From Candidatus Gottesmanbacteria bacterium (GTDB lineage: Bacteria > Patescibacteriota > Microgenomatia > UBA10105 > UBA927): a stretch of DNA of 64,000 nt. A program made the position numbers and the translations under genes. The notes below the pieces were generated by a model. That model saw nothing but the letters and a program-made list of their open reading frames with translations, did not search any database and was not told the origin of the DNA. Numbering within the stretch: position 1 is the first letter of the stretch; each line of letters opens with the position of its first letter. The stretch lies in NCBI GenBank assembly GCA_023245355.1, contig JAHFKN010000001.1:268596-332595 (forward strand), given 5' to 3'. Of the stretch, positions 34,153 to 61,322 are shown in pieces.

Positions 34153-34732
34153 ATTTAAGCCGGTATGTCAGGTTTTTGTTGCGCTGTCGGATAACTTTCG
34201 CCGGTACTCCGCCGACCACGTCATAGGGAGCCACATCATGCGTTACCACGGCTCCCGATGCGACAACTGCCCCTTTTCCGATTGTGACTCCGGGAAGTAT
34301 CGTCACCCGGGTTCCTATGACCACATAATCCTCTATCACAACCGGCCCCCCTGTTTCGGCAAAATCCGGGGAATCGATATCGTGTTCCATGGTGTATATG
34401 CGCACTTCCCCGGCCACGGAAACATTGTTGCCGATCCTAAGCGGACGGTCGCCCTTTCCGGCCAACTGCTTTATATAGCTTGCCGCTTTGCTTTCTCCGC
34501 TCCCGGCGGCCCGTTTATACCTGCCGTCTAAGAATGCATCGTTGCCGATAATCGTATTGTGGCCGATGTGTACTCCTGCCGGATTATTAAACTGTGCACG
34601 CCAGTGGATACTGGAATCCTTTCCGACCCGCACTCCGAACAGATACCGGTAGAGAAACAACCGGATGGTGTGACTCGGGATAAACCCTATAAGCGTACAA
34701 AGATATACCCAAAAATCGATAAAGAGTCTCAT
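34133..34732 (-). CDS. Left-handed beta-helix (hexapeptide) sugar O-acetyltransferase, WbbJ/WcaF/MAT-like
   Basis: Hexapeptide repeats IGHNTIIGNDAFLDG..., IGNNVSVAGEVRI, VIGTRVTILPGVTIGKGAVVASGAVVTHDV. Confidence 0.75.
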   Translation of the reverse strand: MRLFIDFWVYLCTLIGFIPSHTIRLFLYRYLFGVRVGKDSSIHWRAQFNNPAGVHIGHNTIIGNDAFLDGRYKRAAGSGESKAASYIKQLAGKGDRPLRIGNNVSVAGEVRIYTMEHDIDSPDFAETGGPVVIEDYVVIGTRVTILPGVTIGKGAVVASGAVVTHDVAPYDVVGGVPAKVIRQRNKNLTYRLKFARLFQ

Positions 34733-35859
34733 ACTGCCGATCCTTTCTTTCCGACCTCTTCCAACACGGACATCACTTTTTCGGCCGCAAGGTCCCACGT
34801 AAATGCTTTAACGCGTTTTTTTCCGGTTGCCACACGCGATAAGCGCTCTTTTACCGTTTCCGTAAGTGCCTGGGTAATGCCTGAAGCGATATTTGCCGCA
34901 TCCTCGGGATCCACATATATCCCGGCATCGCCGGCTATTTCCGGCAGACTGGAGGTAGAACTCACCACGACCGGCACGTCATAACTCATAGCCTCCAAAA
35001 CCGGCAAACCGAACCCTTCATACAGACTCGGAAGCACGAAACATGCGGCGTTTTTATACAGCTGCGGAAGTGCACTGTCCGGCACGAAATCCATAAACTG
35101 CACACGATTGCTGATACCGAATTTTTTAGGTGCTGAAAGTATTTCGTCGTACAGCCATCCCTTTTTCCCCACGATAACCAGCGAAATTTCCTTATCTTTA
35201 AGGAGACTGACAGCTTCGATCAGGCGCGCGAAGTTTTTACGCGGCTGGAGGGTTCCTACTGAGAGGATGTAGCGTTTCGGAACAGGTAGAGATGAATCAG
35301 TACTCTTTGCCATAGCATCTTTGGAGACGCTATCCGGTAATGCCGGATAGGCAACCACGACGTCCGAATCCGGAATGTGGTATGAATCGATTATAGCATG
35401 TTTGGAAAACTCGCTAATCGTTATGATTTTGGCGGCATGACGCACCGAATACGCAGTCCAATGAACCAATTTATGCAGATCCTGCGCCCTGAATAACTCA
35501 GGATACGAAAGATACGAAACGTCCATAATCGCCATCACTCTGGGAATTTTGACAAACCTCGGGATATAGTGCGTCGGGGAAAAAATCACATCCGGGCGCG
35601 TGCTGTCGGTCATAATACCTATAGGTAACCCGATAAACGTCCAGAACTGCTTGAGGGGTATGCTCCGGTAGGTAAACGTCGCTGACTCTTCGGGCATATG
35701 CGCGGCGACTTGGCCCGGCACATAGACCCGGACCATATCAAACACCCCGCGACCCGCTCGCTGCAGTTTTGCGATATGATCTATAAGTTCAAACGCGAAC
35801 CGACCTATCCCCACCCGGACTCCCGCGTTTGCTTCATACCCGTCGATTGCCAGTATCAT
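34729..35859 (-). CDS. GT4-family glycosyltransferase
   Basis: Complete GT-B: N-domain plus C-terminal FVLPSLYEGFGLPVLEAMSYDVPVVVS. Confidence 0.8.
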   Translation of the reverse strand: MILAIDGYEANAGVRVGIGRFAFELIDHIAKLQRAGRGVFDMVRVYVPGQVAAHMPEESATFTYRSIPLKQFWTFIGLPIGIMTDSTRPDVIFSPTHYIPRFVKIPRVMAIMDVSYLSYPELFRAQDLHKLVHWTAYSVRHAAKIITISEFSKHAIIDSYHIPDSDVVVAYPALPDSVSKDAMAKSTDSSLPVPKRYILSVGTLQPRKNFARLIEAVSLLKDKEISLVIVGKKGWLYDEILSAPKKFGISNRVQFMDFVPDSALPQLYKNAACFVLPSLYEGFGLPVLEAMSYDVPVVVSSTSSLPEIAGDAGIYVDPEDAANIASGITQALTETVKERLSRVATGKKRVKAFTWDLAAEKVMSVLEEVGKKGSAV

Positions 35860-36446
35860 GCTTCCCCCAATCCCGGATACACGACCGTCAGTTTACTTTG
35901 GGAAATGCCCAAGAGTTCCTGTGCATCATGCCTGGTCGCTTCTGAGTCGCAAAAAAATACGGCGCACGCTTTGGCTGCCCGCACGAGTCTTCGGGTGTGC
36001 GTTGCGACGATATTGGCAGCAATCCTGCCGCGCGCGACATCTAACACCGCCTGATTATGAGACTCCTCGGGATACCGCAGCACGGAAAGATCATGGATAG
36101 TGGTAACCCCTATGGCATGGATAAGCGGCGGGTGCGTCCAGTCGCTGCTCCAGAAAATATCCAGAGGACCGGTAAACCATTCAACAGGCACGATATGCGC
36201 GCGGTTCCACAGCCAATCGAGTACCGTAGGCGGCACGGGTATCGACACCAGGCGGACATTCGCGTGTTTTCCGCCAATCGTAGATACGAATTCGGAAAAA
36301 ACGTGCCGCTTCCGCAGGGATGAGCCGAACAACACATATTCATGTTCCGGATACTTTCTGACTAAAGAAGTAACGATACTGCGGACGTATCGTGCAACTC
36401 CGGTGCCCTGATGGGCAATTTGGCTTATATCTATGCCGATTTTCAT
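35856..36446 (-). CDS. Truncated GT4-like protein: Glyco_trans_4 N-terminal domain only (possible gene remnant)
   Basis: 196 aa, GT-B N-domain (MKIGIDISQIAHQGTGVARYVRSIV...) ending VVYPGLGEA exactly where the C-terminal catalytic domain would begin. Stop overlaps start of next complete GT4 (ATGA). Confidence 0.5.
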   Translation of the reverse strand: MKIGIDISQIAHQGTGVARYVRSIVTSLVRKYPEHEYVLFGSSLRKRHVFSEFVSTIGGKHANVRLVSIPVPPTVLDWLWNRAHIVPVEWFTGPLDIFWSSDWTHPPLIHAIGVTTIHDLSVLRYPEESHNQAVLDVARGRIAANIVATHTRRLVRAAKACAVFFCDSEATRHDAQELLGISQSKLTVVYPGLGEA

Positions 36447-36452
36447 ATGGGG

Positions 36453-37442
36453 TTATCCGGAATATCCTTCAGGATGAGTCGCATGCCATCGCATGGCTGA
36501 TTCGACTATATTACGGATATCCGAATGCTTCGGTTTCCAGCCGAATTCGCGCATGAGCTTCCTAGGATCCGATACAAGCACTGCCGGATCCCCGCTTCTC
36601 CGGTCGGATTTCCGGACGTTGAATGTCTTACCTGCGACGTCTTTTACCACGTTTACCACTTCCTGCACGCTCACGCCCTGACCGGTACCCACGTTATATA
36701 CGTCACTCTGATGGCCCGAAAACAGCGCCTCCAGAGCCAATATATGCGCTTCACACAGATCTTCTATATGGATATAGTCCCGTAATGCCGTGCCGTCGGG
36801 AGTTTTATAATCCGTGCCGAATATCATAAACTCCGGGCGTTTCCCGAGAGCCGCCGCACACGCAAGCGGAATAAGATGGGATTCCTCTGCGTGCATTTCC
36901 CCGTTGTTGCCGTCCAACGCGGCTCCTGCAGCATTAAAGTACCGGAGTGCGATGCTTCTGATTGCAAACGACCGGTCATATACCCGGAGCAATTCCTCAA
37001 ACGCCCATTTGGATAACCCATACGGAGATACCGGATCCTTCTTATGATCTTCGGAAATAAGCGGCGTTACCGGATTGCCGTAAACGGCAGCGGTAGAGGA
37101 AAAGATAATATGCTTCACCCCCGCCTCTTTCATCCCCTCAAGCAATGTCACGGGAGCGATCACGTTATTTTTCATGTATTTGATCGGCTGGCGCATTGAC
37201 TCTTCCACGCGGATGTATCCGGCAAAATGCAGGATTCCGTGTATCTTGTGCTCTGCGAAAATCCGCTGTATCAGGGATGCATCACCGACATTTCCCTGTA
37301 TGACGGTCGCTCCATTAGGAAGTGCTTGCCTGTGGCCGAATTCAAATGTATCCAGAACTATAGGCTCGTAGCCGCGGCTTGCCAGCATGCGTGTCATGTG
37401 GCTCCCTATGTAGCCGGCGCCCCCGGTTACTAAAATCTTCAT
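36453..37442 (-). CDS. galE: UDP-glucose 4-epimerase
   Basis: MKILVTGGAGYIGSH, YxxxK (PYGLSKWAFEE), LRYFNAAGA, DGTALRDYIHIEDL - close match to GalE throughout. Confidence 0.85.
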   Translation of the reverse strand: MKILVTGGAGYIGSHMTRMLASRGYEPIVLDTFEFGHRQALPNGATVIQGNVGDASLIQRIFAEHKIHGILHFAGYIRVEESMRQPIKYMKNNVIAPVTLLEGMKEAGVKHIIFSSTAAVYGNPVTPLISEDHKKDPVSPYGLSKWAFEELLRVYDRSFAIRSIALRYFNAAGAALDGNNGEMHAEESHLIPLACAAALGKRPEFMIFGTDYKTPDGTALRDYIHIEDLCEAHILALEALFSGHQSDVYNVGTGQGVSVQEVVNVVKDVAGKTFNVRKSDRRSGDPAVLVSDPRKLMREFGWKPKHSDIRNIVESAMRWHATHPEGYSG

Positions 37443-37447
37443 GCTCT

Positions 37448-37696
37448 TTATTGTACCTGATGGGGCTTCAAAGATGAAATGACGATAAACGTGATAAAAA
37501 ATGCCGCTGCGTACCAGGTAAGCCGCTCAGCGGTAAAAAACGTCCAGGTCGCAAACAACGGTATGGCAAGGGTAAGACTCGCCAGTCCTGCAATAACCAG
37601 CAGTCGGGGTTTACGAACCCCCAGCAGCGCGCCCAAAATAAGAAAAAACAATATATCCTGAGGCTTCATTTCGTTACAGCGCTTTATAATAGGCAA
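37448..37696 (-). CDS. Small hypothetical membrane protein
   Basis: 82 aa, 2-3 predicted TM segments, no recognisable family; start overlaps downstream gene end. Confidence 0.35.
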   Translation of the reverse strand: MPIIKRCNEMKPQDILFFLILGALLGVRKPRLLVIAGLASLTLAIPLFATWTFFTAERLTWYAAAFFITFIVISSLKPHQVQ

Positions 37697-38615
37697 TGGT
37701 TAGCTTGAGTCCTGCATCGACAGGTACCACCGGCGCCCACCCCAACAGCTTCTTCGCTTTGGAAATATCGGGTTTGCGCTGCGTCGGATCATCTGCCGGC
37801 AGATCCTTATGTGCTGTCTCTGACGCGGACTCTGTCATCGTTTTTATTTTGGTCGCCAAATCTACCATCGTGTATTCCTCAGGGTTTCCGAGGTTTACGA
37901 CTTCGCCTTTGGTTTGTTCTTTCTCCATAAGAGAAATAAGACCGGAAACCATATCGCTTACGAAACAAAATGACCGTGTCTGTTTGCCGTCTCCGTATAT
38001 TGTGATCGGCTCACCTTTGAGTGCCTGATTTACGAAATTGGATATCACCCGTCCGTCATCGGGCCGCATCTTCGGGCCGTAGGTATTGAATATCCGGGCG
38101 ATCCGGGCGTCGACGCCGAATTTACGCACGTATAGCATTGTCATCATCTCGCCGAACCGTTTGGACTCGTCGTAACATGCGCGAACGCCGTTAGGATTCA
38201 CATTGCCCCAATATGTTTCCTTCTGCGGATGCTCCTTGGGATCTCCATACACTTCCGACGTGGACGTAAAAAGAAACTTGGCGCCATGTGCTTTCGCAAC
38301 CTTGAGGAGCGCTCTCGTGCCGACGGTGTTAACGAGCGCCGTCTCCTCCGGATAATTCTGATAATCCGGAACCGACGCGGGTGAGGCCAGATGATAGATA
38401 TAATTGATCGGCCCCAGCACCGGCAGCTCGTTGATGACGTCGTATTTTATAAACGTAAAATCCGGATGCTTGCTGGCCTCACGGAGATTATTTTCGTTTC
38501 CGGTCAGCAGGTTATCGAGGGCAAACACTTTATAGCCTTTACTGAGCAATGCATCGACAAGATTGCTGCCGATAAATCCGGCTCCTCCGGTTACTATGCA
38601 TATTTTTTTATTCAT
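37674..38615 (-). CDS. UDP-glucuronate decarboxylase (UDP-xylose synthase, UXS)
   Basis: CIVTGGAGFIGSN, ASPASV, NPNGVRACYDESKRFGEMM, NTYGPKMRPDDGRVISNF - motifs diagnostic of UXS/ArnA-decarboxylase clade. Confidence 0.85.
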   Translation of the reverse strand: MNKKICIVTGGAGFIGSNLVDALLSKGYKVFALDNLLTGNENNLREASKHPDFTFIKYDVINELPVLGPINYIYHLASPASVPDYQNYPEETALVNTVGTRALLKVAKAHGAKFLFTSTSEVYGDPKEHPQKETYWGNVNPNGVRACYDESKRFGEMMTMLYVRKFGVDARIARIFNTYGPKMRPDDGRVISNFVNQALKGEPITIYGDGKQTRSFCFVSDMVSGLISLMEKEQTKGEVVNLGNPEEYTMVDLATKIKTMTESASETAHKDLPADDPTQRKPDISKAKKLLGWAPVVPVDAGLKLTIAYYKAL

Positions 38616-38641: not shown

Positions 38642-41617
38642 TTACTTCAGTATGAGCGGTACTAACACCTGATACATTTTATCTGCAAGCTTTGCCTGGC
38701 TTTGTGGTGACGGATGCACCACATCCTGTAAATCGGAAGTATCCAACCAGGTATACGGATCGATATATGAAATACCCTTTAGAGAAGCTTCTGCCCGTAT
38801 CGCATTGCTGTATGAACGGATTTCCTGTTCAGAAAAATCCTTCCTCCGCAATAATCCGACGGCGATGATGCGCGTAGAGGGAGTTTCTTCCCGTATCCGT
38901 GACAGTAATGCCGCATAATTCGAACGGAATACATCAAGCGGAACCGTATGAGCCAGATCGTTGGTACCCATAAATATGAGCGCAATGTCGGGTTTGAATA
39001 CGCTTATATCGGTGCTGACACGAAGCAAAGCTGAATCCCATCCTGCAATCGGCGAAACGGACGAACCGAATATACCCGCATTATGAACTCTGTATCCTAA
39101 TTGCTTGGCAAGCATATACGAATAATTGTTTGGCCCGAACGAAGACGTGATCGAATCTCCTAAAATTGCCATGACCGGTTTTTCCAAATCCTCCGGAGGC
39201 ATCACGATGCTTCCTTTATCCGCCGATAATTTCCTGACACGCACATCACACGGCACCATTGCACTACTGCAGATTACCCGCGCCGTTACGGGCACCGGCT
39301 CTTTTGACGGTAACGGTATATCAAGGCGTTTGTTACTAAACGGAGATGCGAGTGTATACACTGCATCCCCGATGTGTAGCTCCAGCATCTGTTCGTCCGG
39401 CACGGTATTTACGCCATCTGCTTCAACACGCAGCATCGTCGCATTTTTCAACCGGAATGATACTTCGCTTCCCCCAAATCGGGAGCTTACCATTTGCTCT
39501 CCTGTTATCGGATGAATGAACCGCATCCACTCTGAAGAATACCGAGTGGCGGGACTATTCAACACATCGGATTCCTGAGGAAGAAAACGGTATGCACTAA
39601 ACATTATTCCTGCTAAAACGACGACCATCGCTCCCTTGCCCGCTATGTTCCTTATCCGTCTGTTTCTCATCAGGAAAAACAGCAGAAGAATCAAAAGTGC
39701 GATTCCCGTGCCCCGATACGACCATACCAGCAGTAATTCTTTGGAATACCAGACGGAAACCCTGCTCGTGTAGTTGGAATCGATTACAAAGCTATTCAGT
39801 CCATCTTTCGTTTTTCTGCTCCGGATATATGATTCACCATCCCAGAGTTTCCATGACGGGTCAAAGCTTTCGGAAAATATAAGTTCTACCGGCCGGTTAG
39901 ATGTGTTGATGTTGACCGTATACAACGTCGAACGAACGCGCTGCTCCTGCTGCCGTTCCAGATCAAAATTTTCCAATTCGCGGTAAAAATGTCCGGCGGG
40001 TTTTGCGTATTCATATACCGCAAGTCCGGTAAACTCGGGCAAACGCGTCATGTATGGCACCGTATCCAGCGCTTTCACCATGCGTTCCCGGAGCAAGGGG
40101 TCATACGACCGGTCGGTCAAAAATATCTCCCCCATCGAGTCCTCGGGGATTACAATATATTTAATGGAATACGACCGGATCAATTGTTGCGCTGACGGGT
40201 CAGTGAGTTCTGAAATAATCGCTTCCGGATCACTTGTTTTAAACACATCGCTGGCATTTATAAGCGGATGATGCTCCGACTGAAACACGAACCGCTGTCT
40301 CCAGGGAACGGCGAGTATACGGCTAAATCCCTGATCCGACACGGCCAGCTGTTCAAACCGGGTATAATCTGAAGCGACAGTCACAGTTCCGAATGTGCCT
40401 CGCACTTCGCCTTTCCAAAACGGCAGCAGTAACAGCATCCAGAAAGCCAGGAACGCCGGGAGCACATATGCCGAGTGATACTTCTTTACCTTGCCCAATA
40501 CCATTTCGATACTTCCGACGGCATAGGGCAACAGCACCGAAAACGACAGCGCCGTCAACAAATAAAATTTCGTAGGATCGCGGAATCCGCTAAACAAGGG
40601 AAGATGCGTAAACGCCCAGTTATACACCTGTCCGAACGGAGGATTTACTCCTTTTGCAAAAAACGCGCCGATCAGGGCGAGCATCACAAAAAAACGGTAC
40701 TGACCATGCTCATGCGTTTTCTCCTGACGTGTAAAAACAAGCGGAAGCATGGCAATAAACGGCAACAGCAGAAATTCCGGACGCATAAAATATGTTTTTC
40801 CGAATATATTCTCCGGCCAGTTAGGATGGAGAAGCGACAGTGTCTTGGAAAATTCCGCCCAACTTAAATATGACAGCCATCCGGGATCACCATAGCCGGC
40901 CGGCAATCCGAACGACGGAGCGGCCATAAGCGGGATAAACCAAAACAGATTTGCTGCAATGATCCAGAGAGCAGGGACTATATACATACGCGCCGTGGCT
41001 ATCCAGCGTGATGCAGGAATGCGTATTACGGCATACAACACTAGTGCGGCATAGAGAAGATATGCGTAGCGTATGTCAAAAATAATAAACGCGACGGATG
41101 CGATGGTAAAAAGCAGCGTGTTTCCGCGGATGAAACTGCCCAGCACAAACGGAGCCGCCGCATACGCCATCATAAGTCCGACCTGACCGCCGCCTGAAAT
41201 CATGAGTATGTAGGTATTCGTCATGTATACCAATGCGCCGATAGCAGCCAGCTTGCGTTCTTTTATGACCGACTTTACAAAATAATATGCTCCCGATAAT
41301 CCGAAAAATAAAAACGGCCAGAAAAACATGATGCGCATGGCAATCAGCCATGGGATATGAAAAACGGATACGAGGAGCCGGATTCCGACATGCAGGTAGC
41401 TATCAAGGTTCAGAATATGAAACGTACTCCCGCCCAACCCGTTCCCTGCCACCTCGCTCCATGCAAGCGGAAGCCAGGTAAAATCTCCGAGCCGCTGGGG
41501 ATATAAAAACGTGAAGTCGGGAGCGCTCAGTATTCCGCCTTTAAACCACCGGAGGTACACCGCTGTGACAATTCCAAGGCACGCCAATTTAACAAAAATC
41601 GGGATACGGAACTTCAT
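38642..41617 (-). CDS. Giant (991 aa) YfhO/AftD-like GT-C membrane module fused to C-terminal SGNH/GDSL hydrolase domain
   Basis: N-terminal ~560 aa polytopic. Then a periplasmic beta-rich segment with [16 protein letters not shown]...SFVIDSNY...[13 protein letters not shown] and TM (YfhO-type C-terminal signature). Then ILGDSITSS (block I), GTND (block III), DVVHPS (block V) SGNH motifs. Confidence 0.6.
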
Positions 41618-42210
41618 GGACGTTTTTTGATTTCTCTTGCCGGATTACCGACGACAATCATATATGGCTTCACGCTCTTCGTTACGACAGAGCCGGCACC
41701 GATTACCGCTCCCTTACCGATTCTGACACCGGGAAGAATGATGCAGTGCGCACCAATCCAGACATCATCTTCTATCACGACAGGAGCCGACGTGCACCCC
41801 TGCAGATTTATGGGAACATCACGCTTGGAAAAATTATGATTAAAATCCGTAATGAAGCTATATGCGGATATCTGTACGTGATTGCCTATCTCTATCAGCT
41901 TTTGAGCAGTGATAAAACAATTGTCGTCAATGAGAACGTCCGAGCCGATGCTGACATGCCCGCCGTATCCTGCATCGACACGAGTACATCTTCCGAACCG
42001 CACATTATCTCCGACGCGGATATGCTTTTTATGACTTTGAAAAAAACTATTACTGCCGCCCAAAAACACATCAGCGGACATATCAAAACCACGAAAGTTT
42101 AGTAATACTACATGTATGCGTGAGCAAATAAACTTTATCAACCATTTTGTGGCATGAAAAATAAGTTCAATGTATCCTTTTCTCGCTGTAATTTGTACGG
42201 TGCTGCTCAT
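41614..42210 (-). CDS. Left-handed beta-helix (hexapeptide) acetyltransferase
   Basis: Hexapeptide repeats [31 protein letters not shown]..., [30 protein letters not shown]. Confidence 0.7.
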
Positions 42211-42213
42211 AAA

Positions 42214-42600
42214 CTATTTGCGTAACTCTACTACCATTTTGATAAACACATACCACAACATAAAATAAACAATATTAGCTATTGAATCGACAAGGCTGCT
42301 ATTCAAACCCAGCGCAGGAATGATTGACACAACTAAAGCAACTAATATGCCAATCATAATTGTGCTATGTTTAATCGAAAAAAGCGACATCGCAATAAAT
42401 ACCAATATGAGGTGATATAAAAACGGTGAAATAAGCAGGTTGATATACGGTATTTGGATATATAACCTTAGAACAAACACTGCGACGACAAACAATTCAA
42501 GTTCGATCAAATGTTGCTTAATATAGATCCAAAGATTTTCAAAAAAAAGAAGCTGGCCGGAAAGCAATACTTGCTTGTATCTTTCTATTTTATTCTTCAT
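42214..42600 (-). CDS. Hypothetical small polytopic membrane protein (AT-rich island)
   Basis: 128 aa, 3-4 TM, no recognisable family; about 35-38% GC versus about 52% elsewhere. Confidence 0.35.
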   Translation of the reverse strand: MKNKIERYKQVLLSGQLLFFENLWIYIKQHLIELELFVVAVFVLRLYIQIPYINLLISPFLYHLILVFIAMSLFSIKHSTIMIGILVALVVSIIPALGLNSSLVDSIANIVYFMLWYVFIKMVVELRK

Positions 42601-45600
42601 ATATTTTTGCGTTTTATAACCATAAAAATGATTATTCCGATAATCCCGACGACTGTAACAAGTACGCCTTTATAGAAGAGGGACTGGGGATAAAATTCTA
42701 GTATAAGACTCTTTGCTGGCTTCTCTTTCAGATACCAGGCATTTGCATATCCATTTACCTGCATGTGCATGTTTTCCTCATATGTTGGCGGCCTCCAGCG
42801 TGTTATAACTTCCAGAATATTACCGGTTGAATCAATCGGGCTCAATCTCCACAATCCATTGTAATTTTCATTAAATACCAACACGAGGGGAAATGTTGCC
42901 CGGGAAAGATCGACGACATATTTCGTTTGATTAATCCTGGTGTAGGAAATATTCTGATGAACCTGCTTTTCACCCGTGCCGTTATGAATATATAGCGTTG
43001 GTTTGACTATTTCGTGAACGGAAACGCTATCCTTCAGAACGGTTTCTTCGTCGCCTATAGTGACACACTGGTATATATACGCCCCCGTGTCACCGTCTGA
43101 ACCGGAAAAATATCTTTCTTGTGGTGTCGATTTATAACGGCTGAAATTATACGCATAATCTGGTATAACGACATCATCGTCAATTGAAAATGTATCCGAA
43201 TTGATTTTGTTTTTTCTCAGATAAAACTGCGTGCTGGACGAAAGTGCGGAAGCGTTATTAATAACTAACCGATACGTACGCTCCCAATCAAAACCCTGTA
43301 TTTGCGATATCTGACACATCTGTTTCCGCGAATCAATTGTGACGGCCTTCCTTGTGGTTTCACTTAAAAGCGACTGGCGTTTCGGGAATATAAGTGTTAC
43401 CAACTCCTTTGGTTTCGCTTCATATGCACCCAATTCAAACCGATCTGATAGTGGATTCTTCGCAATTCCCGAAAGGTCGACAAAGCGATTCCCTATCATC
43501 ATGCCAATCGGTAAAACCCTCTTCCCGTCTGTTCCCGTGGCAAGGGTTAGCGGATCCAGATAAAATATCCCCTCAGATTTCTCATCGGGAAGCCGATAAA
43601 CCGCACGATCGTCGTAGACGTTCTTCAATGTTTCGATGCGTTTGATTACTACACCAAGTTGTTTCTGGAATAGAAGAGTCGCTGTTGTATATTTTGGACT
43701 ATTGCCAAGCATTTTATTTACAATTCGATCCTCTGACATAGCGAAGTCATATATACGCGCCACCACATCGATAGCCTCCGGAGAATCGAGGCTTGACGGC
43801 ATAAGAATCTGGACTGAATCCCACTGCTCTGTCAATTCTGCTATCACCGGTAATAATGCATCCGCGTCAACATTCCGCTCTCCAAGACTTGCCAGTTCGG
43901 AAATTCTCTTCAGCGACAAGCCTAGACGATGAGAAATTTTCGTTTCGACGGAAGCGGTATTTTCATCCGGAGTTTTTTCCCTCCATCGCTTTATGCGATA
44001 CAGGAGGGATCCAGGTAAAATACTTGTATAGCGAGGGACAATATCTGCTTCCTGCTTTTGCAACTCACATGTAAAGCAGGCTACACCGCTGATTACATCA
44101 CGTATGGGGAGCGACTCAAAAGAGGGATTAACAATAGATTTACCTACTATTTGCTGCAGAATAAAGTCTGTCGTGCCCCACAAAACGGCTCCCACCGCGT
44201 CTTTTGGCTGTCCGTTCAATTGTGTCAATCCAGAAACACTATAAATTTTATTTTTCGTGTACGTTGGAACTTGATATATCTGCCACGGTCCTTCATTCCA
44301 TACGAGAGGATATGTTTTCTTCTGTGATAACACATCTCTATACACATCAGGCGACTCACTGGGTATATCCGTGCTTTTATACGCTATATCTCCCGCCAGC
44401 AGAATATGTCTGATTTGAAAAAGCGTAAGCAGGTTACCTGCGAGTGTAGAATTACTCTGAATTTCTTTTGCGAGCCGGTTGAACATGGCTAACTGACTTT
44501 CATTAAGGTAATAAGAGTATTGAACGAATGGCTTTGGCCTTATAAGGTTAAGCGGGCTATATAAACTGAAATAATTCCAGCTAAATAATGCTGCTTTCCA
44601 TGTCGAATTAAAGCGAGGCAAAATAAGCGTTCTCCCCTCATCATCCAAATTATCCTTGCTCCATGAATCAAAAGATTCGATATAATCGGGAATCGTAAGT
44701 AACGTTGACAAATTCCTGTTGTAATAAAAAAAGCCACGCTGGAAATACGGGAAGTGATATAACAGTACCAAAACGAAAACTGCTGCAATCGCACTTGAGG
44801 AAAGTATTCTCCGTATGGCCGGACGGTAAAACGCAAAAAATTTACTTTCGGAAATTAGATAATTTATGGTAAATGAAATAAGGATTGCAAAGGAAAGCAG
44901 TAACGCAGGGATAAATTTATATTGGGCCGACCGAAAAACCACAAAACCCGGTACATAAAGCATGAAAAGCGAATATAGCCAACCCGTTGGGGGATGTGAT
45001 CCCGCGGAAAAGAAAATGCCCAATAAGGATAAACCGGTAAAATACAAAATAACTTTTTTCTGCTCAATCTGCCTGACCAAAAGCACCGCCGCATACGCAG
45101 CTGGAGCAAATAGCATACTGACAACAATCAATATTTTTTTCTGAAGAAACTGATTTGCATAAGGATGATACGGATTATCGTACCAATCCGGAAAACCCTG
45201 AAGCCGGAATAGATTGCTGACGCTCGTGTGAATGCTAACGGAATCCGTCCATTTCAGCACCGCGGCTTTTCCGCCTACAGCCTGCAACGTACTGTAATAG
45301 GTTGTTATCACATAATAGAGGAACGGAAATAACCAATAAGCATTGAGAAACAAGCTTGTTACAATCGCAACTCCTACAAATCGTGCCGATCGCTTATATA
45401 ATTCTTTTCGTTCACTCCCTGTGGCCAGAGCAATAAAATACACAAACACCATTACAAATGCAGTAAGTAAGCCCCCGAAAAGCGGAAGACTGAGGCCTCC
45501 CCCACCATTAAATAGGAATAACACTGCTGCGAGCAAAATTCCGGATCTTATCGTGTGCGACGATTTGCGCATGACACCAATACATATCATCACTGTAAGC

Positions 45601-46112
45601 GGAAGCGTGGTATATGCAGAGAATGTTGTTCCGGCGCCATACCTCCACAAAGCTAACAAATAAAAATTAAACACATACAAGAATGCTGCCAGCAAAGGGA
45701 ACCACCTATAACGGAAAATGTCACGCAGGGAAAATGCGAGCATATACATCCCGACTTGCATGGCAAAAAACCAAAACACAAACGTCACCCGCTCTGAGTC
45801 AGCTACCGATAGACCTATCCTGCTTGCCGCTGCCTGTATGGATAATATCGGAATCACGCTTATACTTGTGGTATTATCCAATCCGAAACTATCCTGACTA
45901 TTCCACGTAAAAAATCTGTTTTTATACGCCTCAATGACATTTATCGGATATCCCGAATCGTGTCCTGTTAGTATTTGACCATTCGGAATCCACAACAGCG
46001 GTATACAAGAAATAAATCCAATCACCACGATGTCGAATAATCTCGGAAGCGATTTTAAGAAAAATCTAGTCATATATTTTCTCGTTATAAACAAGCAGCA
46101 AACATCATACAC
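42597..46112 (-). CDS. Giant (1171 aa) AftD/YfhO-like GT-C membrane glycosyltransferase with large extracytoplasmic domain and C-terminal TM anchor
   Basis: N-terminal ~430 aa with about 12 TM. Then ~650 aa soluble region. C-terminal signature LVLVFNENYNGLWRL...NGYANAWYL...LEFYPQSLFYKG followed by a TM helix - the pattern seen in DUF3367/AftD and YfhO proteins. Markedly AT-rich. Confidence 0.55.
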   Translation of the reverse strand: MYDVCCLFITRKYMTRFFLKSLPRLFDIVVIGFISCIPLLWIPNGQILTGHDSGYPINVIEAYKNRFFTWNSQDSFGLDNTTSISVIPILSIQAAASRIGLSVADSERVTFVFWFFAMQVGMYMLAFSLRDIFRYRWFPLLAAFLYVFNFYLLALWRYGAGTTFSAYTTLPLTVMICIGVMRKSSHTIRSGILLAAVLFLFNGGGGLSLPLFGGLLTAFVMVFVYFIALATGSERKELYKRSARFVGVAIVTSLFLNAYWLFPFLYYVITTYYSTLQAVGGKAAVLKWTDSVSIHTSVSNLFRLQGFPDWYDNPYHPYANQFLQKKILIVVSMLFAPAAYAAVLLVRQIEQKKVILYFTGLSLLGIFFSAGSHPPTGWLYSLFMLYVPGFVVFRSAQYKFIPALLLSFAILISFTINYLISESKFFAFYRPAIRRILSSSAIAAVFVLVLLYHFPYFQRGFFYYNRNLSTLLTIPDYIESFDSWSKDNLDDEGRTLILPRFNSTWKAALFSWNYFSLYSPLNLIRPKPFVQYSYYLNESQLAMFNRLAKEIQSNSTLAGNLLTLFQIRHILLAGDIAYKSTDIPSESPDVYRDVLSQKKTYPLVWNEGPWQIYQVPTYTKNKIYSVSGLTQLNGQPKDAVGAVLWGTTDFILQQIVGKSIVNPSFESLPIRDVISGVACFTCELQKQEADIVPRYTSILPGSLLYRIKRWREKTPDENTASVETKISHRLGLSLKRISELASLGERNVDADALLPVIAELTEQWDSVQILMPSSLDSPEAIDVVARIYDFAMSEDRIVNKMLGNSPKYTTATLLFQKQLGVVIKRIETLKNVYDDRAVYRLPDEKSEGIFYLDPLTLATGTDGKRVLPIGMMIGNRFVDLSGIAKNPLSDRFELGAYEAKPKELVTLIFPKRQSLLSETTRKAVTIDSRKQMCQISQIQGFDWERTYRLVINNASALSSSTQFYLRKNKINSDTFSIDDDVVIPDYAYNFSRYKSTPQERYFSGSDGDTGAYIYQCVTIGDEETVLKDSVSVHEIVKPTLYIHNGTGEKQVHQNISYTRINQTKYVVDLSRATFPLVLVFNENYNGLWRLSPIDSTGNILEVITRWRPPTYEENMHMQVNGYANAWYLKEKPAKSLILEFYPQSLFYKGVLVTVVGIIGIIIFMVIKRKNI

Positions 46113-47412
46113 TCATCCTAGATGCATTACTATGACGGTGCTTCTGCATCTCATTAAACGCCCTAGTAAATTGTTGCTCCCACGTATTAGTACGAGCTAT
46201 TCTAATGGCTTCTTTACGCATACGCATATATGTTTGAGCATCGGATAACACCATTAATATTGCATTAGCGAAACTTTGTTCATCGTCATTCGCGAGTATT
46301 GCTGCACCTTGATCCGCCATTTCTTTGCCAAGAGGAGGAACCTTTGAACTGATAATAGGCAATCCCGCAGCACAATATGCTCGTATTTTTCCAGCATCTC
46401 CGTAATACCGCGGTGAGCCGGATATCGACCGGTACGGAGCAACAGCTATTGCACAAGACGTCATAATTTTAGACATTCTCGTTGCGTCGGGAATAAAACC
46501 ATGAAATATAACGGCCTCAATCTGATGATAATCCCGTATGATCGGCCGTAACCAGGCAAAAGTTTTTTCCGTTCCCCCTATAATATGGAGTGTTGCATCT
46601 TTAAATTTCTTCCTCACGAGTGCCAAAGCCCGTATTGCCACGTCAGGACCGTTTTCTGGTCCTAACGTGCCCATAAAAACAATGGAGTTAGGTATGACTT
46701 TGTTAAGAGGATTCACATGTATTTGGGACGGAAATAATCCGTTTGCAACATGAATAACCGGTGCCGCGCTATAACGGTTTAATCCTGCCTTGATACGCGC
46801 CGGATGTATCGCGCGGGAAACATCCCAGATATAATCTGCATGTTTTGCGCTGAATCGGTCGAATATCAGATACAGCGAATTGAACCACCTGTTCTTATAT
46901 CTGTTCGGTGAATAATCCGAAACGTAGTAGATCACCTTTTTCACTCTTCCTAACCTACGCAACATGATACCCGCCAATGTGTTGATACTTTCCAGACCGA
47001 TAAAATAATCGAATTGCGTTTTATCCCTGAGCGTCCAATCCATAATCGAAAGGAAGTCCCGTATCTTAAAAGAAATATGCGTGCCGTTGGTATTCCGTAA
47101 ATACAAAATGGGCTTAAGAAGCAGAAACCACCAGGAAGGTTTATACGGAATAAACTCGTGCTTTTTGTAGTAATACACTTCGATTTTGTGAAGTACGTCT
47201 TCACTGCTGGGAACAAGCTGGTCGATAAGCACCAGTTTTTTTATCCTCGGAACCAAAAAATCGCGAAGCGGTTCGACACTGCCGTTGGTCGGCATACGCT
47301 TACCGTTTGCCCATAAGGAAAATGTAGCAAACAATACAGACGTGTCTTTTGTAAGCCCGAGGTTAGCGTTTTTCATTCTTGATCCGTGCCCTCGCCTCTT
47401 CAACCATCGCAC
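46105..47412 (-). CDS. GT4-family glycosyltransferase with N-terminal extension
   Basis: C-terminal GT-B motifs AIAVAPYRSISGSPRYYGDAGKIRAYCAAGLPIIS; about 45% GC. Confidence 0.7.
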   Translation of the reverse strand: MRWLKRRGHGSRMKNANLGLTKDTSVLFATFSLWANGKRMPTNGSVEPLRDFLVPRIKKLVLIDQLVPSSEDVLHKIEVYYYKKHEFIPYKPSWWFLLLKPILYLRNTNGTHISFKIRDFLSIMDWTLRDKTQFDYFIGLESINTLAGIMLRRLGRVKKVIYYVSDYSPNRYKNRWFNSLYLIFDRFSAKHADYIWDVSRAIHPARIKAGLNRYSAAPVIHVANGLFPSQIHVNPLNKVIPNSIVFMGTLGPENGPDVAIRALALVRKKFKDATLHIIGGTEKTFAWLRPIIRDYHQIEAVIFHGFIPDATRMSKIMTSCAIAVAPYRSISGSPRYYGDAGKIRAYCAAGLPIISSKVPPLGKEMADQGAAILANDDEQSFANAILMVLSDAQTYMRMRKEAIRIARTNTWEQQFTRAFNEMQKHRHSNASRMSV

Positions 47413-49194: not shown

Positions 49195-49245
49195 TACTAT
49201 GGAGTTTCTGCAAAATCGTCAACTCATTCCTATTGGAAATTATAA
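49195..49245 (-). promoter_or_regulatory. Candidate internal promoter upstream of GME gene
   Basis: AT-rich 51 bp gap; minus strand TTGACG - 17 nt - TAGTAT. Confidence 0.3.
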
Positions 49246-49812: not shown

Positions 49813-49819
49813 AACGGTT

Positions 49820-59382: not shown

Positions 59383-60622
59383 GGCGATAGTATAACAAAA
59401 GGCCGGTAAATAAACCGGTTAATGTCAGGCAATTTACCCATAAAATGGCGCTGATATCGGAGTGATACAGCGTAATTGCCGCTATCTGTATAAGCGACGC
59501 TGTTGCCACAAAAAGCCAAACCAGTACATTTCCCCGGCCAAGAAGTGTCATCATCAGAAGATAAGAAAGCGAGTACAAAGACAAGAATACGCCGAACCAT
59601 CCTAAATACGGAGCCGCGGGAAAATAGGAAGACCCGAACAGTAACAGAAGCGCCAGTTTCGGAAGCAACGCATAGCCGGCGGTAATCCCCAGGGATATTA
59701 CACCGATGGCAGCCAACGCGGAATACACCAGACGCCGGGAATCAGACTGCTCCTTCGCCCGCTCTGCCACCACGGGAAACAGCACATAGGATATACTGCT
59801 GCCGGCAAAAAATATTATTTTCCCCATGACGGAGAGCGCCGCATAATATCCTGCTTCGACAGGCGGCAGAAAATGTTTCGCCAGCAGAATATCCGTGCTA
59901 TACAGCGACGTCATCCCGAGCATGGAAATAAGCGAGGGAAACGAATATGAAACCAGTTCTTTGGTACTGATATTCGGGGGCTCCTCTTTTGCCCGGTACA
60001 GAAACCTGAGCGGAATAAAATACGCGAGCAGGCCGATCACCCCGGTGATAAGACCGGCGGCAACCGTTTCCACTACCCCCATCATCGCACCCAGTGCGCC
60101 TCCTCCCAGACGGAGAAGGGCTATGACATTTGTCAGTATCATCGCAGGGACGAACATCTGGAATCCCTGAAGCAGACTCGCCTGGATAACGGTCACGAAC
60201 CAGAGTGCGGACGTAAGATACATGAAAAGCACCGAAATATGACGATCGATATGCAGAAATCCTGAAATAATACCGGTAAGCGGCCATATGACGGCAGTAC
60301 CAATGAGGGATATGACGACGATCCGCTTCATCACAAACAGACTCAAAGACTTTGCTTTCCCGACTTCCTGCTTCGCACGGAACCCTGCAATATATTTTGT
60401 AAGCACTGTCTGCAGAACCAGGGAGGGAACGTTTAACAGATACGAAAACGAAAAAAGAGACGCCAGTTCGCCGTACTGCTGGGGGCCCAGAAGCCTGCCC
60501 ACGATGAGATGATACGCATACGCACCGATATTGGCCAGTGTCGTGCCCGCAAGCACTATCGCACTGCCCCGTGCCAGCGGATGAGAGGCCATATGCGATA
60601 TTTTTTCAGCGATGCGCTTCAT
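59363..60622 (-). CDS. Wzx-type flippase (MOP superfamily polysaccharide biosynthesis protein)
   Basis: About 12-14 TM helices, N-terminal MKRIAEKISHMASHPLARGSAIVLAGTTLANIG typical of Wzx/PST proteins; start trimmed from ORF 59363..60748. Confidence 0.7.
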   Translation of the reverse strand: MKRIAEKISHMASHPLARGSAIVLAGTTLANIGAYAYHLIVGRLLGPQQYGELASLFSFSYLLNVPSLVLQTVLTKYIAGFRAKQEVGKAKSLSLFVMKRIVVISLIGTAVIWPLTGIISGFLHIDRHISVLFMYLTSALWFVTVIQASLLQGFQMFVPAMILTNVIALLRLGGGALGAMMGVVETVAAGLITGVIGLLAYFIPLRFLYRAKEEPPNISTKELVSYSFPSLISMLGMTSLYSTDILLAKHFLPPVEAGYYAALSVMGKIIFFAGSSISYVLFPVVAERAKEQSDSRRLVYSALAAIGVISLGITAGYALLPKLALLLLFGSSYFPAAPYLGWFGVFLSLYSLSYLLMMTLLGRGNVLVWLFVATASLIQIAAITLYHSDISAILWVNCLTLTGLFTGLLLYYRHAVKNH

Positions 60623-61322
60623 GAAGGGATGATTTCGGTTTCCACCAGCGGTATTTGATAAGCGTAATAAGCGCAACGATTCCATCCCGCCAGGTAAGTT
60701 TCTTCCCCTCCTCAAATTTCCTGCCGAAGTATGAGATAGGGACTTCATAAATCTGATGGCCGCTCCGCAACAGCTTTACGGTAATCTCCGGCTCGAAGTC
60801 GAACCGCTTTGCTCTGATGTCAAAATCTTTGACTGCCGCTTTGCGGAATGCTTTGTAGCCGGTTTCCATGTCGGTAATATTTGTGTTGTAGAGGATGTTG
60901 GTAACAAATGTCACGAATTTATTTCCCAGCGCATAGACAAACATGGTTGAAAGATGTGAGCCCAGAAACCGTGATCCGTATACTGCCGTCACTCTGTCAT
61001 TTTCAAACGGTGCAAGCAGAATCGGATAATCATCAGGACTATACTCCAGATCAGCATCCTGAATAAGGATGATGTCGCCGGTAGCCCGCCGGAGCCCGGC
61101 CGTCACGGCCGCTCCCTTCCCCTGGTTGCGCAGCAGATTCACCACGGTAACGCGATCCTGCCATTTCTTAAGAATAGTGGCTGTCGTATCCACCGACCCG
61201 TCATCCACGACAATAATCTCTTTTTGCCAGCCGGGAAGTGCCGCTTTCGTCACACGCTCCAACACCTCACGGATTGTTTTTGCTTCGTTATATGTCGGAA
61301 TGATAATGGATATCGTTTTCAT
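60606..61322 (-). CDS. GT2-family polyprenyl-phosphate glycosyltransferase (DPM1/GtrB/ArnC-like)
   Basis: ISIIIPTYNEAKTIREVLERV...IIVVDDGSVDTT, QDADLEYSPDD DxD/ED region. Confidence 0.8.
   Translation of the reverse strand: MKTISIIIPTYNEAKTIREVLERVTKAALPGWQKEIIVVDDGSVDTTATILKKWQDRVTVVNLLRNQGKGAAVTAGLRRATGDIILIQDADLEYSPDDYPILLAPFENDRVTAVYGSRFLGSHLSTMFVYALGNKFVTFVTNILYNTNITDMETGYKAFRKAAVKDFDIRAKRFDFEPEITVKLLRSGHQIYEVPISYFGRKFEEGKKLTWRDGIVALITLIKYRWWKPKSSLHEAHR

Follow-up and report, generated by a model that had tools for sequence, protein, structure and literature searches.

A predicted AftD-like GT-C module fused to a CE2-like SGNH unit in Microgenomates, with a possible role in acetyl editing during cell-surface glycan assembly

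Within the window, the 64,000-nucleotide stretch of DNA analysed here, a single uninterrupted reading frame on the minus strand, with its ends at exactly 38642 and 41617, encodes a protein of 991 aa (plus stop) in which a predicted AftD-like GT-C module is followed by a CE2-like SGNH module. The host is an uncultivated ultrasmall bacterium of the Microgenomates (Patescibacteria). An AlphaFold2 model of the whole fusion, obtained at high confidence (pLDDT 93.3, pTM 0.88), splits the protein into five parts: an 11-TM GT-C core, an outer alpha/beta domain with a beta-sandwich, a two-helix TM hairpin, a second beta-sandwich, and the SGNH domain. The same layout of ~1000 aa was found in 36 homologous clusters (90%-identity clusters), and because these come from independent assemblies, an assembly artefact is ruled out. 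Homologues of exactly 991 aa occur at 94% and 87% identity, and the architecture is preserved down to 34% identity. The fusion has a single origin within the Microgenomates, and the fusion clade is monophyletic.

A sequence-only reading of this DNA had described a polytopic N-terminal part, a beta-rich domain followed by a TM helix, and an extra TM helix ahead of an SGNH domain. All of these are seen both in the hydropathy analysis and in the AlphaFold2 model, which agrees with the GT-C plus SGNH layout, and every motif that had been quoted is present: one of 10 residues at aa 583–592, one of 11 residues at aa 622–632, and GDSIT (aa 820–824), GTND (aa 884–887) and DVVHPS (aa 965–970). The SGNH domain had also been placed outside the cytoplasm, and the predicted topology supports this, with 13 TM helices running N-in/C-out and a K+R density of 0.32 in the predicted cytoplasmic loops compared with 0.06 in the short outer loops. 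An element absent from that reading is a beta-sandwich of ~130 residues (aa 678–812), which stretches from the last TM helix to the SGNH domain.

The N-terminal module begins with the transmembrane core (aa 1–401; 40415..41617, minus strand), which has 11 TM helices and a long first outer loop. D34 lies in this loop, 12 residues past TM1 (codon at 41516–41518), and is kept in 110 of 110 sequences. Other conserved motifs of the core are likewise on the outer face, namely GGGQ (142–145), D181-x-R183, an 11-residue motif (264–274), K322 and FRDPTKF (345–351). The chain then continues into an extracytoplasmic alpha/beta domain (aa 402–530) and a beta-sandwich (aa 533–624, which holds the 10-residue motif), encoded together at 39743..40414 on the minus strand; their counterparts in AftD are its soluble GT-C domain and structural beta-sandwich. 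Over 111 sequences with a mean identity of 29%, 19 columns are invariant, among them D34, D181, R183, K322, R346, D347, K350 and D493. Furthermore, the module has 43 conserved polar or aromatic residues, not one of them cytoplasmic; all lie either outside or within TM segments. The module thus displays two traits of the GT-C superfamily: an N-terminal TM bundle with a long first outer loop, and a conserved acidic residue (D34) in the first extracytoplasmic loop, which marks a candidate active site at the outer face. D34 may be the equivalent of the essential D41 of AftD, a match of position between unaligned sequences.

Could the module be placed in a described glycosyltransferase family? In a Pfam search of the query, no GT-C model was reached above threshold; its GT-C status therefore rests on the fold and the conservation pattern, and by the structural model the module is predicted to have a glycosyltransferase-type fold of this class. 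It had been called YfhO/AftD-like, and only the second half of that label stood. Weak matches to PF11847 (GT-C_AftD) were found in 7 of 55 relatives (best E = 1e-4), and the fold agrees; the query had no PF11847 match at E ≤ 1 and reached AftD in a PDB profile search only at E of about 0.8. YfhO (PF09586), on the other hand, was matched at E ≤ 1 by neither the query nor any of the 55 relatives, and it is on this difference that we regard the module as AftD-like rather than YfhO-like. Membership in YfhO was rejected; a BLASTP alignment with the window's own YfhO-like ORF was collinear and non-significant (E about 2). An ordinary OatA-like protein was rejected as well, since no acyltransferase-3 (PF01757) match was obtained at E ≤ 1 and the membrane module has the predicted GT-C fold. 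In NCBIfam, a weak match to MmpA was found over aa 299–450 (E = 6e-5). The N-module family comprises 10,472 representative clusters, most of them without any esterase.

AftD itself (PDB 6W98, 6WBX; PF11847) is a mycobacterial arabinofuranosyltransferase with about 14% identity to the fusion and no significant sequence match. Its 11-TM core is joined by a soluble GT-C domain, three CBMs, a beta-sandwich, and the helices TM12 and TM13–16. Of these elements, four are seen in the model of the fusion: core, soluble domain, beta-sandwich and return helix. On the other hand, the fusion has neither the three CBMs nor the ACP-binding TM13–16 bundle, AftD has no CE2-like esterase module, and the two proteins come from different phyla.

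The TM12–TM13 hairpin (aa 626–677; 39587..39742, minus strand) consists of helices 626–651 and 658–677 joined by the cytoplasmic loop MRNRRIRN, where the K+R density is 0.41 across 30 family members, and it brings the chain back to the outer side. It leads into a linker and the second beta-sandwich (aa 678–812; 39182..39586, minus strand), the equivalent of the N-terminal carbohydrate-binding-like domain of CE2-type enzymes. This sandwich carries an invariant Cys pair (C783, C790), which we counted as support for the outer topology. The SGNH hydrolase domain follows (aa 813–991; 38645..39181, minus strand). It matches PF13472 (E = 3e-22, 80 bits against a cut-off of 32.9, aa 819–973), PF00657 (E = 3.5e-11) and PDB profiles of SGNH esterases. 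Block I reads G820-D-S822 (S822 codon at 39152–39154), block II contains G851, block III reads G884-T-N886-D887, and block V reads D965-V-V-H968 (H968 codon at 38714–38716). S822, N886, D965 and H968 are present in 30 of 30 fusion proteins and G851 in 29, and the block V consensus across the fusions is D-[V/G/A]-[V/L/I]-H, with no Trp. These matches and residues bear out the complete SGNH domain of the sequence-only reading; on alignment, the Ser in GDS and the His in DxxH are both invariant. The domain is predicted to use a classical Ser822-His968-Asp965 triad with a Gly851/Asn886 oxyanion hole.

Taken together, the hydrolase part is a two-domain CE2-like unit of beta-sandwich and SGNH. It has the order of domains of the CE2 esterases (CtCE2 2WAO, CjCE2A 2WAA, Est2A 3U37, and 4XVH), an N-terminal beta-sandwich and then the SGNH catalytic domain, at 13–17% identity; the CE2 N-domain model PF17996 gave no match in the fusion protein. 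The CE2 enzymes are secreted plant-polysaccharide degraders, whereas the C-module is tethered either to a putative biosynthetic enzyme of the membrane or to one TM anchor. Most CE2 members work with a dyad of Ser and His, their block V Asp being lost or displaced by Trp (PMC9487903). CjCE2A is known to depart from this in having a triad. In the fusions, D965 is invariant.

The nearest relatives of the C-module outside the family, found by a profile search (a single-sequence search gave two matches only), are SGNH proteins of the hydrolase type whose fusion partners are lectins or CBMs and in no case AT3. Among the ORFs of at least 150 aa in the window, there is no AT3 or MBOAT gene. Because of these two observations, we lean to an esterase as the predicted activity. 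The AT3-SGNH O-acetyltransferases (OatA, OafA/OafB) differ from the fusion in that they have an acyltransferase-3 membrane domain where the fusion has its GT-C module, and this module cannot carry acetyl across the membrane as proposed for AT3. Furthermore, the SGNH domain of the fusion is nearer to esterases than to the AT3-SGNH type and is accompanied by an extra beta-sandwich.

Directly upstream of the fusion gene lies a gene for a 198-aa hexapeptide (left-handed beta-helix) O-acetyltransferase of the WbbJ/WcaF type, without TM helix (41614..42210, minus strand). It scored E = 7e-18 for Hexapep, 4e-30 for WbbJ (NF007240) and 5e-27 for the WcaF family, in each case short of the equivalog cut-off. 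Its TGA stop overlaps the ATG start of the fusion (ATGA), and such overlap is usual across the fusion loci. An ortholog is present in all nine fusion loci with flanking sequence, directly upstream in eight of them, compared with none of 69 stand-alone N-module loci (score ≥ 150). A Fisher test of the co-occurrence gave p = 5e-12; because the fusion clade is monophyletic, we do not rely on it. For the same reason, the association amounts essentially to one acquisition followed by retention and not to many independent events. In a distant lineage, the N-module, a TM-anchored C-module and the acetyltransferase are found as an unfused trio, encoded by separate genes within about 13 kb; the C-module there has a single TM anchor and stands in the same type of glycan cluster. 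A counter-case is the stand-alone locus L005, which has a C-module homolog nearby and no strict acetyltransferase ortholog within 16 kb. Overall, the co-inheritance and translational coupling of the acetyltransferase and the fusion point to a shared pathway.

Further upstream, a small membrane protein of 128 aa with about four hydrophobic helices (42214..42600, minus strand) is encoded between the acetyltransferase gene and that of a distant N-module paralog. It matches neither Pfam nor GtrA. Its homologs occupy the same position in 9 of 10 fusion loci and in the truncated locus L016, and also lie directly upstream of a few stand-alone N-module genes. The paralog (1171 aa; 42597..46112, minus strand; synteny conserved) is a second candidate for an AftD-like GT-C; its outer domain is larger, and it has no SGNH part. 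BLASTP aligns it with the fusion in two collinear segments (E = 1e-6 and 2e-4), and it too has a faint MmpA match. A 1062-aa neighbour (30075–33263), considered as a further paralog, showed no similarity. Directly downstream of the fusion is a UDP-glucuronate decarboxylase (UDP-xylose synthase, UXS; 37674..38615, minus strand; E = 1e-102 to human UXS1 4gll and 2b69). UXS was considered as another strict partner, but its presence in 5 of 10 fusion loci versus 5 of 69 stand-alone loci supports this only in part, and we keep it as context.

These genes belong to a glycan cluster of at least 43 kb, which besides UXS encodes a priming transferase, a Wzx flippase, and GT2 and GT4 enzymes, one GT2 being DPMS-like. 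The DPMS-like enzyme, a 238-aa candidate polyprenyl-phosphate sugar synthase (60606..61322, minus strand; PF00535, E = 1.6e-37), has its best PDB matches in DPMS (5mlz, E = 2.7e-20), ArnC (1e-16) and GtrB (6e-10), and judging by these it could supply a lipid-linked donor to the GT-C enzymes of the cluster. In the three-component systems of extracytoplasmic glycosylation (the GT2 CsbB/GtrB, a GtrA-type flippase and the GT-C YfhO/GtlB), a polyprenyl-phosphate sugar is made inside, flipped, and transferred outside (PMC8035078). The present cluster resembles them in its DPMS/ArnC/GtrB-like GT2 and in the small multi-TM protein that adjoins the GT-C genes. On the other hand, the fusion has no YfhO or PMT_2 match, the small protein gave no match to GtrA, and an esterase domain is found in none of the systems described.

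What might such a fusion do? Outside the membrane, GT-C enzymes build major polymers of the cell surface, among them arabinogalactan, decorations of teichoic acid, and N- and O-glycans. On polymers of this kind, SGNH domains write or erase O-acetyl marks. We propose, with a probability of roughly 55%, that the fusion is a lipid-phosphate-sugar glycosyltransferase with a built-in outer O-acetyl esterase, which edits acetyl groups installed in the cytoplasm. It would thus be a bifunctional enzyme of cell-surface glycan assembly. Its N-terminal two thirds would form a trimmed-down AftD-type GT-C (11 TM helices, outer alpha/beta domain, beta-sandwich, return helix), with an active site at the outer membrane face that moves a sugar from a polyprenyl-phosphate carrier to the growing glycan. 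Catalysis or metal binding could fall to D34 of the first outer loop, D181, E269, D347 and D493, and phosphate binding to R183, K274, K322, R346 and K350. One extra TM helix would return the chain to the outside, where it bears the CE2-like unit. In the cytoplasm, the soluble hexapeptide enzyme would use acetyl-CoA to O-acetylate a sugar on the lipid-linked precursor. Once this precursor had been flipped, the SGNH domain would strip the acetyl, or trim it at chosen positions, on the polymer that the GT-C part extends, so that the acetyl group would be a transient or edited mark.

Four points of this proposal are inferred: which type of donor is used, that acetyl is the substrate, that it is hydrolyzed off and not transferred, and that both modules act on the same polymer. 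That glycosyl transfer may be tied to acetyl editing of the same polymer was the functional idea of the sequence-only reading, and it is strengthened by the conserved, translationally coupled acetyltransferase partner. The arrangement suggests that acetyl groups added in the cytoplasm are edited on the outer side during the assembly of a surface sugar polymer. If acetyl editing and glycosyl transfer were coupled mechanistically, the fusion would offer a compact case, found in nature, of glycan assembly that uses a transient or edited acetyl mark.

Such a transient mark is already known from trehalose mycolate export. In the trehalose monomycolate pathway of the Corynebacterineae (TmaT, MtrP, MmpA), an acetyl is added on the cytoplasmic side and, after export of the molecule, removed outside by an unidentified enzyme; MmpA, an AftD-related polytopic protein, is required for this transient acetylation (PMC8698533). 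A complex of AftD with the TmaT acetyltransferase has also been predicted (bioRxiv 10.64898/2026.07.15.738315). The pathway differs from the fusion system in that its substrate is the acyl chain of a glycolipid and its acetyltransferase is the membrane protein TmAT, not a soluble hexapeptide enzyme. We take the likeness as an analogy of logic only.

A more specific version of the proposal, which we put forward tentatively as a possible scheme, is "deprotect, then glycosylate". The acetyl added in the cytoplasm would mask one hydroxyl of the lipid-linked glycan or mark the intermediate for flipping, the esterase would bare the acceptor hydroxyl beside the GT-C site, and the same polypeptide would then glycosylate it. 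If so, the O-acetyl group would be a biosynthetic protecting group or a transport ticket, and the fusion would channel its substrate from the first step to the second. For the periplasmic deacetylase role in mycobacteria, the kind of enzyme to look for would then be an SGNH unit that is joined to an AftD-family protein or associates with one.

Could the SGNH domain transfer the acetyl instead of hydrolyzing it? SGNH domains are known as O-acetyltransferases in the C-domain of OatA, in PatB and in SsfX3. Here, an acetyl that the cytoplasmic hexapeptide enzyme had put on a lipid-linked sugar would be taken over outside through an S822 acetyl-enzyme and passed to another hydroxyl of the surface polymer. 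An extracellular glycan could in this way be O-acetylated with no need for a membrane acyltransferase of the AT3 or MBOAT kind. We consider this rather unlikely. The best structural matches, like the nearest sequence relatives, are hydrolases, and the oxyanion hole is of the canonical Gly/Asn kind, which is the esterase type, whereas PatB1-type transferases replace these residues (PMC9487903). In addition, cytoplasmic WbbJ/WcaF-type enzymes are already able to deliver a finished O-acetylated repeat unit, and a second transfer would be unneeded.

It appears improbable that the N-module is instead a scaffold or substrate handler without glycosyltransferase activity, positioning the esterase near a translocation or assembly machine as proposed for MmpA. 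This explanation would fit the weak MmpA match: MmpA, which can be aligned to the 11-TM part of AftD, is not known to catalyze any reaction, and a transient-acetylation pathway depends on it. The explanation would also fit the lack of a GT-C Pfam match, as well as the unfused C-module, whose single TM anchor implies that the membrane part could be a mere anchor. However, an anchor needs one helix, not 11 TM helices and a conserved outer domain of 220 residues. The N-module family, with its more than 10,000 representatives, is mostly esterase-free, and the conservation is enzyme-like, the listed charged residues among the invariant columns all lying on the outer face, where GT-C active sites are located.

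Least probable is an SGNH domain that acts on an unrelated target (peptidoglycan O-acetyl groups in an Ape-like manner, glycans on a host surface, or lipids that an episymbiont scavenges), with the fusion serving only to anchor it near the cell wall, since the CE2-type matches are clearly better than those to Ape1 or lipases, the strict co-inheritance and coupling involve one sugar-type O-acetyltransferase inside a glycan cluster, and the unfused trio sits in the same type of cluster.

We found no description of a GT-C/SGNH fusion in the literature searched, and a 2022 review of SGNH proteins lists AT3-SGNH as the sole fusion type; as far as could be found, a single polypeptide joining GT-C and SGNH is thus seemingly undescribed before. 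New here are a fusion of single origin kept to 34% identity, the co-inheritance of an acetyltransferase, and the unfused trio in a distant lineage. The membrane half, moreover, represents a very large Patescibacteria family of AftD-like proteins that is uncovered by any Pfam or NCBIfam model. In current annotation, such proteins are named hypothetical or, for the fusions, only "SGNH/GDSL hydrolase".

The fusion gene (window 38642–41617, minus strand) forms one ORF of 991 codons and a stop, and all motifs quoted in the sequence-only reading were located in it: a 10-residue motif at aa 583–592, an 11-residue motif at aa 622–632, GDSIT at aa 820–824, GTND at aa 884–887, and DVVHPS at aa 965–970. 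Pfam detected only the C-terminal SGNH domain (PF13472, E = 3e-22, aa 819–973; PF00657 also matches, E = 3.5e-11), with no match at E ≤ 1 in aa 1–800, YfhO and acyltransferase-3 (AT3) included. The sole addition from NCBIfam was a weak, sub-threshold match to MmpA (aa 299–450, E = 6e-5). The architecture is genuine, since the same ~1000-aa layout is repeated in 36 90%-identity clusters from independent assemblies; relatives at 94% and 87% identity have exactly the same length. Databases name these fusions "SGNH/GDSL hydrolase family protein". Hundreds of additional relatives are stand-alone N-modules of 620–700 aa, that is, the membrane module without SGNH. In an exhaustive profile search, the N-module family comprised 10,472 representative clusters at E ≤ 1e-3, of which 2,199 reached E ≤ 1e-30; SGNH fusions make up 10 of the best 150. 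Some members (L075, L013, P0031, P0032, P0035, P0154) carry an N-terminal extension of ~345 aa (one TM helix plus a beta-rich region and several more TM helices), with the SGNH module (1335–1344 aa) or without it (P0154, 1052 aa).

We ran AlphaFold2 on a 111-sequence alignment. The high-confidence model (mean pLDDT 93.3, pTM 0.88; every segment at least 50) bears out the proposed pairing of a membrane module with an SGNH domain. TM helices extend up to aa 401, followed by an alpha/beta domain (about aa 402–530), a first beta-sandwich (aa 533–624), two TM helices (aa 626–651 and 658–677), a second beta-sandwich (aa 698–806), and the alpha/beta/alpha SGNH domain (aa 815–990). Foldseek with this model retrieved CE2 enzymes (E = 1e-11 to 1e-13) and AftD (6w98, E = 7.6e-11). 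AftD structures were also the sole PDB entries touched by the N-module profile, at a non-significant E of about 0.8, in two collinear segments: the TM core, and the beta-sandwich with the return helix (AftD 1193–1276). PF11847 (GT-C_AftD) weakly matched 7 of 55 family members and PF10131 one of the 55. The YfhO HMM was silent in the fusion (E ≤ 1) and matched none of the 55 relatives, and the membrane module, first taken as YfhO-like, is AftD-like instead. The alternative of an AT3 membrane domain falls away, as the fold differs and no AT3 match appears at E ≤ 1. The published AftD plan runs from 11 TM helices through a soluble GT-C domain, three CBMs, and a structural beta-sandwich to TM12 and finally TM13–16; as modeled, the membrane half of the fusion follows the same plan minus the three CBMs and TM13–16. 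Both components belong to known superfamilies, GT-C and SGNH, and are closest by fold to AftD and the CE2 esterases; by HMM, neither part is a member of the AftD or CE2 families.

The SGNH domain is complete, as proposed: S822, N886, D965, and H968 are present in 30/30 fusion sequences and G851 in 29/30, and block V reads D-[V/G/A]-[V/L/I]-H with no Trp. It has a classical triad, like CjCE2A, whereas most CE2 enzymes use a Ser-His dyad (PMC9487903). The hydrolase part is not a single SGNH domain, however, but a two-domain CE2-like unit (the C-module). A search of sequence relatives with a C-module profile finds stand-alone proteins of ~340 aa (E = 1e-70 to 1e-100) and, past a sharp fall-off, generic hydrolase-type SGNH proteins, many of them lectin- or CBM-fused and one with a CE2 N-domain; no AT3 fusions were among the matches. 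In two fusion loci (L003, 10875–11912; L015, 8850–9893), a second, stand-alone CE2-like SGNH module lies directly downstream of the fusion gene, and the L003 copy is closer to the window's C-module than L003's own fused copy.

Does this unit remove acetyl groups or transfer them? We favor hydrolysis of an acetyl ester (probability roughly 0.55–0.6), because the unit has esterases as its structural and sequence neighbors, its oxyanion hole is of the canonical kind, and removal is the simplest fate for an acetyl group that reaches the outside already on the substrate. The same points weigh against acetyl transfer, which we regard as unlikely, although SsfX3 shows that acyl transfer is within reach of this two-domain fold.

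Helix boundaries came from the model, and charges were tallied across the 30 fusion proteins. Under a 13-TM, N-in/C-out topology, the seven segments predicted to be cytoplasmic have a K+R density of 0.32, against 0.06 for the short outer loops, and the TM12–TM13 loop (MRNRRIRN, 0.41) is among the most basic segments. This distribution places the CE2-like module outside the membrane, in agreement with the extracytoplasmic SGNH domain proposed earlier, and a Cys pair in the second beta-sandwich (C783 and C790), invariant among the fusion proteins, fits that location. The N-module has 43 polar or aromatic positions with ≥85% conservation over 111 sequences (mean identity 29%); 33 fall in outer loops or the outer domain and the other 10 in TM segments, so that cytoplasmic loops have none. 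Among the 43 are D34, which lies in the first outer loop (110/110 sequences), Q145, D181, R183, H264, E269, N270, K274, K322, R346, D347, K350, R433, and D493. Judged from the alignment, the pattern is that expected of a GT-C active site lying at the outer membrane interface, with an acidic residue in the first loop and basic residues putatively suited to lipid-phosphate binding. From position only, we infer equivalence to the essential AftD residues K39, D41, E251, K361, and D474 (AftD paper). The pattern argues against the membrane module being a non-enzymatic, MmpA-like scaffold, which we consider improbable.

Three genes lie upstream of the fusion, and the block of paralog (1171 aa), small protein (128 aa), 198-aa WbbJ/WcaF-type hexapeptide O-acetyltransferase, and fusion is kept in relatives at 87%, 47%, and 39% identity. 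The TGA stop of the acetyltransferase overlaps the ATG of the fusion. Among 80 loci fetched from species-representative genomes and scored with phmmer (10 fusions, 1 cut by a contig end, and 69 stand-alone), an acetyltransferase ortholog (score ≥180) occurs in 9/9 fusion loci with upstream sequence. It lies directly upstream in eight, and a 4-nt overlap was scored in seven of these; the ninth locus has it 2.2 kb upstream of a gene with an N-terminal extension. The truncated locus likewise has an ortholog, whereas scores at the 69 stand-alone loci all stay below 150 (maximum 145). In a neighbor-joining tree of the N-module, 30/30 fusion sequences form one clade with no stand-alone member within, so the fusion has a single origin. 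The best interpretation of the association is that one gene pair stayed together while the sequences diverged to 34% identity, rather than that it arose many times independently. An unfused trio within about 13 kb in a more distant lineage gives support of a more independent kind; it consists of an N-module (score 261), an acetyltransferase ortholog (158), and a C-module of 326 aa (P0122, 190) anchored by one N-terminal TM helix. At L005, a stand-alone N-module locus, a C-module homolog is encoded separately 6 kb off, and there is no strict acetyltransferase ortholog within 16 kb. The fusion is strictly co-inherited and translationally coupled with a soluble sugar-type acetyltransferase; the sequence-only reading holds once this conserved cytoplasmic partner is added. 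The gene linkage argues against an esterase that targets something unrelated, for example peptidoglycan or material of a host, a reading we consider very improbable.

The analysis thus shows an AftD-like GT-C fold with enzyme-like outer-face conservation, joined by one ancient fusion event to a catalytically complete CE2-like SGNH unit outside the membrane. The setting is a glycan cluster with a candidate lipid-phosphate sugar synthase, a 238-aa GT2 (60606–61322) whose best matches are the polyprenyl-phosphate sugar synthases DPMS, ArnC, and GtrB, and without a membrane acyltransferase (no AT3 or MBOAT among window ORFs of at least 150 aa). The acetyltransferase would O-acetylate a sugar of a lipid-linked precursor in the cytoplasm, the precursor would be flipped across the membrane, the GT-C module would use a polyprenyl-phosphate donor to add a sugar to the glycan, and the tethered SGNH unit would remove or trim the acetyl group on the same polymer. 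Of the original proposal of glycosyl transfer linked to acetyl editing, the architecture and the location of the SGNH unit stand, and we infer action on a shared polymer; acetyl editing coupled to GT-C glycosyl transfer is a clear, testable hypothesis.

In the known proteins that join a membrane module to SGNH, the AT3-SGNH acetyltransferases (OatA and OafA type), the membrane fold is a different one. No GT-C/SGNH fusion was described in the literature searched, and a 2022 review of carbohydrate-active SGNH enzymes mentions AT3 fusions only. MmpA, an AftD relative, is needed for the transient acetylation of trehalose monocorynomycolate, which ends in deacetylation by a periplasmic enzyme that is not known (PMC8698533), and a 2026 preprint predicts a physical complex of AftD with the acetyltransferase TmaT (bioRxiv 10.64898/2026.07.15.738315). 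Both are analogies, not evidence of orthology, and make the GT-C/acetyl-editing link plausible. The fusion, confined to one clade of uncultivated bacteria, is real, and the original reading is upheld with its three corrections (AftD-like, two-domain CE2-like, acetyltransferase partner).

Every gene of the window is on the minus strand. A cluster for peptidoglycan synthesis and cell division occupies positions 1–18 kb (Mur ligases, MurA, MurB, a PBP, MraW, GlmU, and a FemAB-family protein at 747–1811); the organism therefore makes peptidoglycan, possibly with an interpeptide bridge, and encodes this beside its surface-glycan cluster. The glycan cluster, from about 20.5 kb to the window end, encodes a priming Bac_transf, numerous GT4 and GT2 enzymes, a GT-C of the PMT type, a Wzx-type flippase, several SDR enzymes of sugar-nucleotide metabolism, three hexapeptide acetyltransferases, and one methyltransferase. 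Directly downstream of the fusion lie a UDP-glucuronate decarboxylase (UXS, UDP-xylose synthase; 37674–38615; E = 1e-102 to human UXS1) and, beyond it, a GalE-type 4-epimerase (36453–37442; TIGR01179, 404 bits, above cut-off), which hints at a pentose such as xylose in the glycan. UXS is enriched beside fusions (5/10 versus 5/69 stand-alone loci), though the linkage is not strict.

The paralog (42597–46112), a distant N-module relative (two collinear BLASTP segments, E = 1e-6 and 2e-4), gives a sub-threshold DUF5667 match, and its outer domain is much larger; it is kept beside the fusion in relatives and appears split into ~770 aa and ~330 aa in some stand-alone clusters. The 128-aa multi-TM protein (42214–42600; no Pfam match, no known family) and an 82-aa one (37448–37696; no Pfam match) hold conserved places across relatives. 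The former also lies directly 5' of some genes for stand-alone N-modules and may therefore serve this GT-C family as a subunit or flippase. A 1062-aa polytopic protein (30075–33263; no Pfam match, weak IctB-like match, E = 3.5e-6) is perhaps Wzy/O-antigen-ligase-like and ends the conserved block in both fusion and stand-alone clusters. A 514-aa membrane protein (62392–63936), with a T-H-D motif shortly past its first TM helix and a C-terminus weakly matching the end of the YfhO model (E = 2e-5, sub-threshold), is probably another GT-C-type enzyme. A split GT4 (34729–36446; a 196-aa N-terminal Glyco_transf_4 half, then a full-length 376-aa GT4) keeps the same sizes in relatives. GC content steps down across 42214–50475 (small protein 0.33, paralog 0.42, acetyltransferase 0.44, GT4 at 46105–47412 0.44, third acetyltransferase 0.41) from 0.48–0.53 in the fusion and downstream genes, and this part may be variable or exchanged. 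Named sources of relatives are all Patescibacteria of the Microgenomates group (Woesebacteria, Gottesmanbacteria, Levybacteria). Many records bearing the cluster (L007–L086) are titled "uncultured Gammaproteobacteria bacterium", and a few Limnocylindrales or Eisenbacteria; these are probably placeholder or wrong labels, as the cluster is clearly patescibacterial.
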